DNA of 64,000 bases from Flaccisagitta enflata (GCA_965153355.1 OZ231126.1:10292001-10356000), one strand, 5' to 3'. Positions 38,188 to 64,000 are shown, numbered from the stretch's first letter. Program-made: numbers and translations. The notes: generated by a model from the letters alone, not told the origin.

Positions 38188-38887
38188 AGTAGATGGAATT
38201 CCCGCTAAAATGATGAGACACCATTTCTATTGTGACAGTTAGGGGGGTAACGAAAGGGAGTAAGTCTGCATTGAACCCCATGAGCATTAAACCCATAAAA
38301 CTATCAGGGGTCAAGTGCGCAAAATTTACGGGTGAAGCGCAAAGGATTATCTTGTCAATCATGATCTTTCACCCCTTTGACCATAAGCGTGTGACCATAA
38401 GTGTGTGAACTTTCACCCCAATGATCATGGATTAAGCAAACACACGCGCGTATGGTAAACGTACGCACGCGACCCGTAGCTATTGGTCACATGTGCCATA
38501 TCGGGGATTTATGATCTGAGAGCGGCGCTACCGAAGTGACTAACGATGATCCTGTTTTACACTCGACTGATTTCTATTCAGCTTGATCAAACTTTGATCT
38601 ATGATTTCCGTTCCTAATTATATGCAGATCTGTTCAAAATGTTTGTCGCTTTTATTGTCTTATCAGGATGGAAAGATAGCTAATGTCGTGTGATAGCTAG
38701 ATAGAACATTTTAAAAAACGCGGTAAATGCGATAAATCCCAATATAATAAAATTTAAAAAATAACTTCATGCATAAAAAATAGTCAGTAACAATGAGGTT
38801 AAATTGTTGTTGGCAAGAAGAGGTAGTTGCATCAAAAAAATGAGCAATAGTTCAGAGTAAGAAAAAAATAACATGGTCAGATATAGC

Positions 38888-39661
38888 CTAGACAGCTGAT
38901 GAACACTCAAACGCGCGATTAACTTGACCGTATTCAGAGGTGGGTCTACTGCGAGTGAAAATCAAAGGCATGCGCAGCTCGGCCAAAGATGACCGGAACC
39001 AAACCCCGATATCGGCATCTTCAAAACGGGTTTGACGAATCCTAATTAGCTTTATAGCAAGAAATCCCACAAGTAGAAAAGATAATATCAAAAAAACTGA
39101 TAGTGCCACAGTGGCAGCGAAATACGAGCCGTGTCCTTTGATCATTGCCGGGTTTATTCTAGCCGCGGGTGATGCTTCGGTGGTGGTGGTCGTTGTTGTT
39201 GTCGATCCATGATGGCCGTCTTTTGTCGTTGTTGAAGAGATTTCCGGTGCAATAGTTCGGACCTAAAAAGAGAGAGAGAGAGAGAGAGAGAGAGAGAGAG
39301 AGAGAGAGAGAGAGAGAGAGAGAGAGAGAGAGAGAGAGAGAGAGAGAGAGAGAGAGAGAGAGAGAGAGAGAGAGAGAGAGAGAGAGAGAGAGAGAGAGAT
39401 AAGGACGGCCACGCGTGAATGGAAAAATATTCCGAGATTGCGACTCCACCGTGAGATTATGCTAATGTGATCACGATCGACTAATAGACCCATCTGCTTT
39501 TTAGTCACCTGATCAGGTCCGATCTCACCCCTGACAAGGGTGAGGCCAACAAACACGAGAGCGCAGATCACTTTCCACCACTGGCTAATCGAATCTTTGC
39601 CAGTCCGCCGGAGATGCCGCCGTTTGGCCAACCGGATGAAAAGCCACGCGTTCGCTTCCAT
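38888..39661 (-). CDS. Small mucin-like type I membrane protein (~175 aa, 2 exons: 39661-39509, 39262-38888)
   Basis: Signal-like WWKVICALVFVGLTLVRG. CAG|GTGACT and TTTTAG| splice sites are both phase 0. Thr-rich stalk, TM ATVALSVFLILSFLLVGFLAI, tail with SEYGQV and C-terminal SSAV. AATAAA at 38656-38651. Confidence 0.7.
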
Positions 39662-41315
39662 AATCCCAGCTGAGGGTCCCGTCTTGCGGTAGGTTGTGAT
39701 ATCTCGGCCGAGAAGCGGGGACGGTGGGAACCGGAATGGGCGCTGCCCGCAGGGAGGCTGTTGTTAGGCTGTAGTAGTTTTCGCTTGGTGGTTCGACGTA
39801 GGTGGGCGATGAAGAATCGATGTCGATGCGAAATTGCGTTTCATTGAACGAGTTGTTGTTGTTGTTGTCGTTGTCGTTGTTGTGAATATCGGCTCTTGTT
39901 GTTGATGTCAAATTATCGTAAATGCTGTCTGGAGAAGCTGAAGAAGATTGAGATGGAAAACTATTGAATGGAACGACGGGGACGAGGTAGCCAGAATTTA
40001 GGCGACTTGCCAGAGTAGGGACGGTAGGAAGAGGAGGAGGTCTTGTTTTATTTGCTTGTCCAATGGTATCGACGATAGTCTCGGGTTTGTTGCAGTTGAA
40101 TCCAAATTTGACGCACAAAACCAGTGAAAAAATGATGAGGATTGAAGAAAGGGCACCAAAGATGGCGATAAAGAGGACAGTATTGTTTTTAACTGCAGGG
40201 TTGGTTATTGGCCCAGGCACGGGGATCGAAATGTTGGCGATTTTTGATAAATCCGTAGTGAAATTTCGGGGTTGTGGAAGAAAAGCCGGAGAAGTGGGGG
40301 ACAAAAGCAAAGAGGAAGTTTGGAAAGTGGGAAGAGAACGGAAAGTTGGATATGAAGGATAGGTGAATGTTGAAAGGAAAAGTGCCAGATGATTTGAAAT
40401 TCGACGTAACTCGGACGTGGAAGTAGATGACGGTCTTTTTGTAATTTTTCGATGGGGGTTTAACTGTGCTGCTCGGTGAAAGAGTTCCAAAGAGCGTGAG
40501 CGTGCCCGAGTGTTGGCCGAGAATGAGGTTGTTGTGGAGGGCACCGTGCGTGAGTTTGTAGTGGGCACCGTTGTTGATTTTGTGGGTGCTTTGGTGCTTC
40601 TTGATGGCGTTGTAAATCGATTTGCGGAATTTGAGGACGATTTTGGCGATTTCCTTGGCGTATTTGTGGGCGCCGTAATCGGTCGTGAGAACGTTGACCA
40701 CGTGGGCACGGCAGCCGTAAATGTTGTTGAGACTCGTGATGAGCGAGTTGTAGGCGCCCGTGTGATGGGAGATGATCTAGGACGCGTCGCTAGTGTTCCA
40801 TGTGTGTATGAAGGAGTAACGAAGAAAGCGGAGGAGGAGCGAGGAGGAAGAGGAGGAGGAGAGGAGGGTGGAAGCGTTGGTGGCGGTGATGATGGAACTG
40901 TAGACGTTGGAGGATCCACTAGTGAATGCCACTCTCCATGGGATGGGTATCCTTGCAGCCATTGAATACACGATGATTTCGCGTGATCATAATCTTCGTC
41001 CCATCCGTGTACCTAGTCAAAGAAAAAGATAAAAAGTGGTGATATTGCATGCTTCTGTAAACGCTTAAAAATGTTTCTATTAATGAAATAAGGGGAAGGC
41101 TAACAGATTTATAAACCTACCATGTCTCTCACACAAGAGTTAAACTGATTAATCTTTTCATTGTGTGTGTCTCTTGATTTCCGAGATAGTTTGGCAGATG
41201 ACGGGAAATAGAGGATGTGAGGCAAGATTATCATAAGAATAAACCACAGGTGTAATTTCACTGGTTGAGACTGATTGTTCTTGGTTTTTATTGTTTTTCT
41301 CCGTAAGACTGCCAT
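39585..41315 (-). CDS. Mucin-like type I membrane glycoprotein with Tyr-motif tail (~540 aa, 2 exons: 41315-41121, 41012-39585)
   Basis: Signal-like LHLWFILMIILPHILYFPSSA. ATG|GTAGGT and CTAG| sites join in frame across a 108-nt intron. Two-Cys head, S/T/P stalk, N-glycosylation sequons, TM VLFIAIFGALSSILIIFSLVLCV, tail with SIYDNL, YVEP, YYSL, YHNL. Confidence 0.8.
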
Positions 41316-63047: not shown

Positions 63048-63946
63048 CACGAGGGCGCTCGAATGTGAAGCGTGATGCGAGTGTAAGCGCTAAACGAAGT
63101 AATTGGTCTATCGTACAAGTCACGTATCAGTATTCGGATGTATTGAATTTCCTGAGACTTCAACGTGATGTATTGCGGCGATCCTCCGTAATTGCGCGTT
63201 ACTCTCAGTGTTCCGGGAGTGTAGGGAAAAGACACGAAACGTAACAATCCAGCTTGACCGGAGGCGATTTTTTGAGGCACACCCAAATTTGAGAGAACCA
63301 TGAACGTGTCGTTGGGCGTTAACTCTGGTGGGTACTTGAAGTAGTCCCGCGTCGTCATAGTCGAGGGCCAAATCACTTGGCAATCCTTGTGGAAGAATCT
63401 TGTCTGCCTTTTATACTCGTACTTGAGCTTCTTGGTCTTATCTTTGGAGATCCCGATGATGAGATACTGCCGACGGGTAGAGTGAGTTGTTTGCACACCA
63501 AGGAGGTCCAATAATCCAGCATGGATTTTCATGGTGATTCCACAGTCGGGTTCAAACGAGACCCAAATTCGAACCAACACTGGATCGTACGTAAATAACT
63601 TCTTTATGCGTCGCGGCATTTCCTTTTTAATCCCATCGTTTAAAAACTTAACCAAGGTATTTCCAGAAACTAATTCTTTTCTTCCAAGTACCACTTTAAC
63701 GATTTTTCCATATGTACCATCTTCATTCTCATAATACCAGTCTAAAATTTCCAAATACGCAGTATCATCGTCATTCATATGTACGGCCTTGTAGGAAATT
63801 TCTGTGAGACAGACGGACGAACCTTGGGGTGCGTATAAAGGTTCATCGAGTACATTGGTGAAGTCACTTGGGGAATTGGGGAATCCATTTAGCGAGTTAG
63901 ACAGCAGGTTGATGTAGCAACCCTGAGGTGTCAACTGAACCGGCAT
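63047..63946 (-). CDS. mCP: Minor capsid protein (penton-like, Polinton PX), 299 aa, intronless
   Basis: N-terminal YINLLSNS..FPNSPSDFTNVL..VCLTEISY and C-terminal LLRFV..YITL..IRILIRDLYDRPI..ITLHIR motifs. Confidence 0.9.
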   Translation of the reverse strand: MPVQLTPQGCYINLLSNSLNGFPNSPSDFTNVLDEPLYAPQGSSVCLTEISYKAVHMNDDDTAYLEILDWYYENEDGTYGKIVKVVLGRKELVSGNTLVKFLNDGIKKEMPRRIKKLFTYDPVLVRIWVSFEPDCGITMKIHAGLLDLLGVQTTHSTRRQYLIIGISKDKTKKLKYEYKRQTRFFHKDCQVIWPSTMTTRDYFKYPPELTPNDTFMVLSNLGVPQKIASGQAGLLRFVSFPYTPGTLRVTRNYGGSPQYITLKSQEIQYIRILIRDLYDRPITSFSAYTRITLHIRAPS

Positions 63947-64000
63947 TTTTCAAGTTGACCAGCGTCTGACTGTCAATGAATTGTTTGAACCGCGGATTAT
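63897..64000 (-). CDS. Probable C-terminal end (chromodomain tail) of the retroviral-like integrase, truncated by the window edge
   Basis: NPRFKQFIDSQTLVN resembles the GYPxxFNSWI tail, and integrase normally precedes penton. Only ~33 codons are visible. Confidence 0.4.
   Translation of the reverse strand, partial: NPRFKQFIDSQTLVNLKNAGSVDTSGLLHQPAV

Follow-up and report, generated by a model that had tools for sequence, protein, structure and literature searches.

A probable end-truncated adintovirus-class Maverick copy with a giant polymerase and predicted introns in candidate virion genes in Flaccisagitta enflata

We have analyzed a stretch of 64,000 nt of Flaccisagitta enflata DNA (GCA_965153355.1, OZ231126.1:10292001-10356000), called the window below, with positions counted from its first letter. 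The window probably holds a Maverick/Polinton-type virus of the adintovirus kind, i.e. of the Adintoviridae, now called Eupolintoviridae (PMC12166617), as a copy that is integrated in the germline and end-truncated. The initial annotation of an endogenous polintovirus is supported: a protein-primed family-B DNA polymerase (PolB) of the adintovirus/Maverick class, with OTU-like and endonuclease VII-like (EndoVII) domains, adjoins a penton-like open reading frame (ORF) and a gene with protease motifs. On the + strand a zinc-finger/poly-Gln gene ends 18 nt ahead of the PolB gene, and a compact minus-strand block of candidate virion genes (63946 to 53739) converges on it. The unusual features are the deep clade of giant polymerases to which PolB appears to belong, its altered motif C (Asp-Thr-Asn, DTN), the apparently split virion genes and the mostly synonymous differences between copies. 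The introns predicted from the sequence of the protease and capsid genes are probably the most unusual of these for an element of the adintovirus class.

The PolB gene lies at 46811-52186 (+), with its ATG at 46811 and its stop codon at 52184-52186. It has 1,791 codons and no intron, and the stop-free frame around it extends over 46793-52186 (1,797 codons). The PolB of the window itself has no match in Pfam (PF03175 included), PHROG or PDB sequence searches. When residues 600-1797 were compared with 1.84 bn representatives using phmmer, 1,790 proteins matched at E ≤ 1e-3, of which 449 were at E ≤ 1e-10 and five at E ≤ 1e-30. P0004, P0005, P0007 and P0010 are near-identical fragments (88-95% identity), and P0006 (29%, E 7e-102) and P0008 are strong matches that are more distant. 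Word-based protein searches added only P0003, P0195 and three further proteins, and no related loci were found in JGI metagenomes, IMG/VR (queries P0006 and P0019) or phage records (tblastn). PF03175 (organellar/viral PolB) is present in four of the seven PolB relatives scanned (P0003, P0008, P0019 and P0020), and P0003 also carries Endonuclease_7 (PF02945); P0006, P0011 and P0014 gave no Pfam family match. In alignments Exo I (D-x-E), Exo II, Exo III, motifs A, B and C, and KxY are all in register. Among solved structures, the PolB-family profile matched T4 endonuclease VII with E 3.9e-6 and phi29 DNA polymerase with E 7.8e-4. An EndoVII-like His-Me finger (CxxC...HxH...CxxCN) is found at 48851-49081 (+), between Exo I and Exo II, and its Cys, His and Asn columns are invariant.

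The N-terminal part of PolB links it to the adintoviruses. In a local hmmsearch, homology of residues 150-620 to the N-terminal parts of ~50 fetched PolB relatives was found. This part was modeled using AlphaFold2 (AF2) on a 38-row alignment, with a mean pLDDT of 75.5, and the model was compared with 48,161 chains using VIA-align; the counts that follow are among the 50 matches listed. Twenty of the 50 are OTU-type deubiquitinases, matched over model residues ~170-343 with Z = 4.8-5.9, values that are middling alone. The corresponding OTU-like cysteine-protease domain lies at 47756-48265 (+). Its putative catalytic Cys (47813) and His (48239) do not vary in any of the 38 aligned rows. A Foldseek search of predicted viral structures (BFVD) with the same model gave eight matches at E ≤ 0.001, the best being a protein of Drosophila-associated adintovirus 2 (E 2.2e-15), the PolB of a MELD virus (2.5e-9) and the polymerase of Adintovirus sp. 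(6.1e-6). Ranks 3, 5 and 6 are polymerases filed under densovirus or parvovirus names, rank 8 is a likewise-filed fragment of a structural protein and rank 7 is an uncharacterised protein of Ostreid herpesvirus 1. In the account of PMC8502044 the PolBs of both adintovirus classes bear an N-terminal OTU-like domain, and that of adenoviruses does not. As modeled, the window PolB is a protein-primed family-B polymerase with an N-terminal OTU-like domain, and its assignment to the adintoviruses is supported.

Another part of the model resembles the little finger of Y-family polymerases. Ten of the 50 matches listed are such polymerases, aligned through their little-finger domains with model residues ~13-164. 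The Z scores are in a middling range (6.6-8.7), and the predicted beta-alpha domain at 47276-47731 (+) is taken as a lead only. A Foldseek search of the model against the PDB returned only weak rows for Y-family polymerases (E ~0.05), and these were set aside. The little-finger-like domain is kept in many ordinary PolB relatives, and sections 3.1-3.2 of the adintovirus text (PMC8502044) do not mention it.

The catalytic motifs have an unusual aspect. The second Asp of motif C in family-B polymerases is a metal ligand. In the alignment the window PolB has DTN at this motif (51284-51292, +) instead of Asp-Thr-Asp (DTD), and therefore the polymerase of this lineage may be weak or impaired. Among the 150 best PolB matches DTD is present in 136 and the full motif B in 112; DTN is found only in P0005 and P0077. 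Copies of the P0005 group carry frameshifts.

We constructed a tree with FastTree from the C-terminal 900 residues of the window PolB and the first 70 of 85 eligible matches (≥950 residues, with motif C). The window PolB pairs with P0006 (local support 98), within a six-row clade (support 98) containing P0011, P0014, P0018 and P0077 as well. The clade members have 1,600-1,760 residues (P0077 is truncated) and lie apart from 65 ordinary PolBs of 980-1,480 residues, a separation that carries a long-branch warning in a tree without named Alpha or Beta adintovirus sequences. All other members of the clade are marine proteins from metagenome assemblies. The identity of the window PolB to its nearest non-self relative is 26-29%. 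From these comparisons the window PolB is possibly a member of a deep clade of giant polymerases, and the lineage may be undescribed.

A clade of this kind might be a virus group of its own at family level, with only its class of PolB in common with the adintoviruses, perhaps a larger, splicing-dependent nuclear virus between polintoviruses and adenoviruses. The position of the six rows apart from the 65 ordinary PolBs and the low identity to other sequences are in keeping with this. So is the failure of PF03175 to match either the window PolB or the three of three other clade members scanned. The only detectable sequence relatives of the virion candidates described below are near-identical copies, and at least 19 kb of the element contain neither an ATPase nor an integrase. 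However, ordinary adintovirus-class PolBs have the same N-terminal OTU module and EndoVII insert, and with long branches and no named references the separation of the clade is unsafe. A separate group is therefore improbable in our estimation, and we retain the assignment to the adintoviruses.

From order, composition and motifs the minus-strand block appears to be a virion module comprising penton, basic core-like proteins, capsid candidate and adenain-like protease. An ORF incoming from beyond 64000 stops at 63950-63952. Next to it is a penton-like (minor capsid) ORF at 63047-63946 (−), which is intact with 299 codons. Its top neighbours in the ESM Atlas score 0.98, in clusters labeled Preplasmiviricota, Nematoda and Arthropoda, and the Sputnik minor capsid V18/19 family is found at rank 26 with 0.97. 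The 93%-identical copy P0195 is the sole sequence homologue found, no PDB sequence matched, and AF2 on the 2-row alignment gave an unusable model (pLDDT 28). We infer that this ORF encodes a penton protein. The packing is tight; the stop codon of the penton-like ORF overlaps the ATG of arginine-rich basic protein 1 (62286-63047, −; 253 codons) in the sequence TGATG, and the protease gene overlaps that of arginine-rich basic protein 2 by 17 nt. The composition and position of basic protein 1 suggest a core-protein role. Both basic ORFs carry a KRRLSAL-type motif.

Fifty bases past basic ORF 1 is the ATG (62235) of the major-capsid candidate, which occupies 59818-62235 (−) in ~7 exons. Its frame is broken six times, and each break can be bridged by a GT...AG interval, five of 67-99 nt and the sixth of ~129 nt. 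The predicted introns are 61987-61889, 61184-61107, 60968-60888, 60621-60539, 60415-60349 and ~60115-59987. Most of the acceptors are polypyrimidine-AG and lie where the following open segment begins; the donor at 60968 is weak. The predicted product has ~640 residues, with an acidic, low-complexity insert resembling a nuclear localization signal. Position and size suggest that this is the major capsid gene. The candidate has no family match in Pfam, and one of its exons gave a score of 0.90 with DUF3684/DUF8348 in the ESM Atlas, too weak to use. The exons of the capsid candidate and the N-terminus of the penton-like ORF may resemble a widespread animal family annotated 'F54H12.2-like', which is taken as a lead only.

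The adenain-like cysteine protease candidate at 58456-59189 (−) has two exons, separated by a predicted intron of 89 nt (58853-58765). Exon 1 contains a His within a G-x-H-W motif. The intron has a GTAAGT donor at 58853 and a polypyrimidine-AG acceptor at 58766-58765, and is in phase. Only when the 89 nt are removed is there a Gln seven residues ahead of Cys-Gly, a spacing like that of the adenain/clan CE arrangement. The candidate has no match to Pfam or PDB sequences. Its 3' end overlaps the ATG (58475) of basic protein 2, which extends over 57675-58475 (−). A 403-codon ORF (57166-58377) overlaps basic protein 2 in another frame. Within 57166-58523 there is thus a 282-codon arginine-rich ORF in one frame and, in a different frame, the 403-codon ORF with a structured-looking C-terminal part. 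The block ends with a large acidic gene at 53739-56606 (−), comprising one or more upstream exons within 55882-56606, a predicted intron (55881-55705) and a main exon (55704-53739). The main exon has 712 codons, is without an ATG for ~255 codons and joins the upstream exon in frame. The intron is 177 nt in length with GT-AG ends, and holds a (GT)n(CT)n microsatellite. No family match to the acidic gene was found.

Taken together, the sequences make it plausible that short GT-AG introns of 67-177 nt are present in four genes, namely those of the protease, the capsid candidate, the acidic protein and a small mucin-like protein described below. The intron search in the acidic and mucin-like genes was made by eye, with the poly-Gln and 403-codon ORFs left out. 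The seven interruptions in the capsid candidate and protease form one size class of 67-129 nt, all with GT-AG ends; two further predicted introns, of ~150 and 177 nt, are both microsatellite-bearing. The initial proposal that at least seven genes are spliced is therefore borne out in part, by canonical intron sequences in four, and the number seven is not confirmed. The predicted introns have no similarity to one another or to the rest of the window, and a motif common to two of them is not above chance, with six matches against 7.4 expected.

Within the predicted intron 61987-61889 there is an AT-rich segment of ~48 nt (61906-61953) that is of extremely high copy number in the genome. The summed contig depth is ~11,450 in the bin 61754-62129, compared with ~130 elsewhere. 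Loose ends occur at 61906 and 61942-61959 in the DNA datasets X1, X2 and X3, and the adjoining sequence is partly similar across copies. No other copy of the segment was found in the window. This intron could be repeat-born, in the manner of an introner.

Reads were compared with the window over 52730-64000. The sources were DNA from X1, DNA from X2 (with the same organism label), the marine metagenome X3 and polyA RNA from X7. The pieces in X1 number 59 at ≥99% identity, 29 at 95-99% and 296 at 90-95%. At variable sites X1 contains two forms at similar depth (~51-78 each), and the divergent form is carried by X2 and X3 over 25 and 28 of 30 bins respectively. The forms differ by ~4-6%; for example, a section of 1,817 nt has 90 differences and one of 812 nt has 32. 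In the divergent form the contigs are collinear through the protease intron, with no intron-less DNA joint reported. Indels between the forms that lie in exons are in frame, at 3, 6, 12 and 1+2+6 nt. Those of 12 and 1+2+6 nt are in the capsid candidate, and those of 3 and 6 nt are in basic protein 2, at 58074 and 58173. Synonymy was counted for the 40 differences listed out of 404, of which 21 fall within 53750-54565 of the acidic gene. In that section 14 of the 21 are synonymous and seven non-synonymous, and 16 affect the third position of a codon. By expectation, 21% of all changes and 33% of transitions would be synonymous. Because the observed share exceeds both values, the sequence comparison indicates that the two forms have diverged under purifying selection.

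A number of observations weigh against a virus copy of adintovirus type. Neither a hidden Markov model nor a structure comparison has identified the capsid candidate, the penton-like ORF or the protease, and the acid position of the protease is occupied by Cys. An FtsK/HerA-type ATPase and rve integrase were not found in 36-64 kb, and Pfam searches over 30 ORFs gave none; a Walker A regular expression applied in six frames above 36 kb gave two chance matches only, both inside arginine-rich ORFs, and no HHCC/rve pattern was found. This accords with the initial annotation, which had put the packaging ATPase and integrase body further on. In PolB, motif C is DTN and motif B is without its Gly, and the same letters occur in the other copies P0005, P0154 and P0155. 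Core genes of vertebrate and nematode Mavericks are described as intronless (PMC8097293; bioRxiv 10.1101/2022.07.12.499685), and apparent Maverick introns have been read as insertions in decayed copies (PMC8097293). The X7 RNA, of which 12.2 M reads (~6% of the run) were compared over 52730-64000, gave no proper alignment and no joints, so this RNA shows neither expression nor a splice junction to support the spliced genes. There were nine partial reads only, all at low-complexity spots, and the virion-side block is silent or very low in the X7 sample. X2 contains rearranged or deleted forms in addition, for example with a joint skipping 516 nt. Lastly, nothing ties 38188-44980 to the element.

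Many of these observations would be expected of a dead Maverick fossil, in which the 'introns' are insertions and frameshifts of decay, and the gene models join ORF fragments artefactually. Degradation affects 96% of vertebrate Maverick loci, and Genewise reads insertions as introns (PMC8097293). The lack of RNA in the X7 subset, the deviant motifs B and C of PolB and acid residue of the protease, the microsatellites within the element, the frameshifts of the P0005 group and deletions in other copies, and the weak predicted donor at 60968 all point in the same direction. Yet the frames of 1,797 and 299 codons are intact. The seven gaps vary little in length and each is bounded by GT-AG ends, and that in the protease, which is in phase with a GTAAGT donor and a polypyrimidine-AG acceptor, restores the exact spacing of Gln to Cys. 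Moreover, the 14:7 ratio of synonymous to non-synonymous differences is to be compared with an expected synonymous share of 21-33%, and exon indels preserve the frame. We think it unlikely that the locus is a fossil of this kind.

The two forms suggest a further explanation, in which the locus is a host-domesticated, vertically inherited gene cluster derived from a Maverick, and is no longer mobile or a virus. The two 'copies' would then be alleles of one locus under host selection. X1 has exactly two forms at similar depth and X2 mainly one, which fits alleles in a highly heterozygous species. The signature of purifying selection, the host-like introns and microsatellites, and the alteration of the PolB catalytic motif in all forms seen are also consistent with domestication. 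However, the X1 depths do not distinguish alleles from paralogous copies, and X2 has extra rearranged forms beside the collinear one. The overlapping stop and start codons and the 18-nt spacer are viral rather than host-like, and no expression was seen in the single RNA run. Domestication therefore seems to us quite improbable, and we continue with a virus copy of the adintovirus kind.

Tandem repeats make up ~0.45 of bases in 1-38 kb, compared with ~0.1 in 38-64 kb, and 38188-64000 is gene-dense, with long ORFs on both strands, unlike the preceding 38 kb. The 1-38 kb flank is almost pure microsatellite and minisatellite DNA, with (AAC)n, (CT)n and (AC)n arrays hundreds of bases long and minisatellites with units of 10-14 nt; no recognisable host gene was seen in it. 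tRNA and Rfam scans of the whole window found none. The ratio of observed to expected CpG is 0.3-0.9 at 4-32 kb, and 1 or more in most bins beyond 32 kb. This shift, together with that in repeat density at 32-38 kb, is the sole sign of a boundary near the left end. The section 35.1-38.1 kb contains tandem repeats of 171, 190, 164 and 151 nt, and its CpG ratio lies in a region that is already at 1.0-1.3 from 32 kb. These repeats could belong to the element as subterminal repeats and not to the host, in which case the left end would lie further out. The element is visible on one side only; it is cut at base 64000, and terminal inverted repeats (TIRs) and target site duplications (TSDs) are outside what the window can show.

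The gene adjacent to PolB is a poly-Gln/zinc-finger ORF at 44981-46792 (+) of 603 codons, containing paired CxxC/His motifs. It has no LxCxE motif and no Pfam family at cut-off. It almost certainly belongs to the element, because its TAG stop is only 18 nt ahead of the PolB ATG. The 603-codon ORF and PolB share a frame, divided by this single TAG (46790-46792), and the codon looks like a true gene boundary because the N-termini of relatives align to the start of PolB. The element thus demonstrably includes ~19 kb (44981-64000) with hallmark genes still missing, and is large.

Further to the left, 41967-44084 (+) contains a group of ORFs, the first having 307 codons with no family at cut-off. 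They include a poly-Gln pair at 43038-43487 and 43488-44084 (+), in the same frame with one TGA between them (43485-43487), which could be a nonsense mutation. On the minus strand there are two mucin-like type-I membrane proteins, one of 475 codons at 39585-41012 and a smaller one at 38888-39763 with two exons and (CT)65 in its predicted intron of ~150 nt. Both have a Ser/Thr/Pro-rich ectodomain and a single hydrophobic segment. The mucin-like genes, the 307-codon ORF and the poly-Gln pair gave no family match. Over the window as a whole, none of 30 ORFs scanned reached the Pfam cut-off; the Pfam, PHROGs and PDB sequence searches gave low-complexity matches only (SAGA factor, portal protein, LAG-3 and PAZ), which are below cut-offs and were rejected. 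Between the convergent gene blocks, 52187-53738 is an intergenic region, which contains (GA)n and also a tandem repeat of 69 nt with variable copy number. The duplication at 53492-53629 has two copies in the window and one in X2 and X3, where 53519 is joined to 53589.

It was annotated initially that 8.6 kb precede the PolB ORF from 38188, which is arithmetically right. Whether these are accessory genes is another matter. A smaller element, of ~45-64 kb plus the sequence beyond, would make 38.2-45 kb a run of ordinary host genes, with no 8.6-kb accessory block. The ORFs there are without viral match, and the genes are of low complexity and bear introns and microsatellites, as host genes would. 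The 603-codon ORF alone is tied to PolB, by the 18-nt spacer. In nematode Mavericks, intron-bearing genes near one end are described as captured host cargo (bioRxiv 10.1101/2022.07.12.499685). On the other side, the repeat density and CpG ratio shift near 32-38 kb and not near 45 kb, and adintoviruses (PMC8502044) and nematode Mavericks (bioRxiv 10.1101/2022.07.12.499685) are reported to carry membrane-active or fusogen genes. The smaller element is a serious possibility, although we do not favor it.

If the window does hold an adintovirus-type copy, the packaging ATPase, integrase and terminal repeats would be placed beyond base 64000. By analogy with adenovirus genes, its genes would be transcribed in the nucleus by host machinery and would require the host spliceosome. 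The lineage would have been resident in a genome rich in simple sequence repeats for long enough to acquire microsatellites and introns. A DTN polymerase might be weak or inactive, leaving copies non-autonomous or no longer mobile. The membrane-protein and poly-Gln genes of 38.2-45 kb would be accessory genes or cargo, and otherwise host flank.

A broader proposal can be put forward, though it is rather unlikely to hold in full. The clade would consist of adintovirus-like viruses of marine eukaryotes, with OTU-EndoVII polymerases of ~1,800 residues and late genes expressed through host splicing, maintained under purifying selection in the germline. It would be either a splicing-dependent lineage of nuclear viruses, or a domesticated cluster of virion genes with a catalytically altered polymerase. 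Should the splicing of the capsid and protease genes prove true, either such viruses can take up adenovirus-style nuclear gene expression, or endogenous copies can persist under selection over a time sufficient for introns and microsatellites to be acquired. Both possibilities are relevant to the continuum between viruses, transposons and host genes. The locus also points to a clade of polymerases seen so far only as marine metagenome sequences, with an enzyme half as long again as usual. If the introns are the result of decay, we have here a divergent Maverick fossil of the ordinary kind.

The closest known systems are the Adintoviridae, which were named for their adenovirus-like gene order and protein-primed PolB (PMC8502044). 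As in the description of that family, the window has an OTU-bearing protein-primed PolB with a zinc-motif gene just upstream, endogenous in a eukaryotic genome. The adenain-like protease, penton-like gene, and basic (pX/pVII-like) and membrane-active accessory genes reported there have candidates here (PMC8502044). The 603-codon ORF is likened to the adintovirus 'Oncoid' by position only (PMC8502044). The window differs in the size of its PolB (~1,790 residues, compared with 980-1,480 for the 65 ordinary relatives), the lack of PF03175 and the DTN of motif C, and in the predicted introns of its virion-side genes and the lack of LxCxE. Insect adintoviruses are 13.3-14.6 kb in total (PMC8363768), whereas here no ATPase or integrase is reached within at least 19 kb, and possibly at least 26 kb. 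By description, Mavericks and adintoviruses are virus-like elements of 13-25 kb, compact and without introns. In corals, the regions of endogenous polintoviruses extend over 10-50 kb with a mean of 23.6 kb, 5-kb overhangs included (PMC11131425).

Intact vertebrate Mavericks are reported to have eight intronless ORFs between TIRs, with 6-bp TSDs (PMC8097293). The window resembles them in its replication and morphogenesis modules and in the same classes of hallmark gene. It differs in having predicted introns in at least four genes, and its protease and capsid candidate appear to be open only across GT-AG introns. The nematode Mavericks (bioRxiv 10.1101/2022.07.12.499685) are similar in having intron-bearing accessory genes near one end and a membrane protein gene, and in that no transcription was detected. 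Their core is described as intronless, and their fusogen is gB-like; here core genes are apparently split and the mucin-like membrane proteins are without a recognisable fold. Introners populate the eupolintovirus proviruses of dinoflagellates (PMC12166617). These have spliceosomal introns, to be compared with the high-copy segment of ~48 nt in intron 61987-61889. Unlike dinoflagellate introners, the predicted introns here lack similarity to each other or across the window.

Finally, an adenovirus-like layout had been proposed for this DNA by analogy, as a regulator, a membrane-protein cassette, a DNA-binding protein and a late structural block. No result supports the label of DNA-binding protein. 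Hexon or penton homology to adenoviruses was not found by Pfam and PDB sequence searches. The window PolB has an OTU-like domain, which adenovirus PolB lacks according to PMC8502044, and the copy is chromosomal. What does hold is the order of the genes: candidates for penton, basic core protein, major capsid and protease are followed by a convergent second block with a protein-primed PolB, and dependence on host splicing, plausible on the sequence evidence here, would be a further likeness to the Adenoviridae. The analogy itself is the published, textbook view of the family and not new, because 'adenovirus-like' is the defining idea of the Adintoviridae and the rationale for their name.

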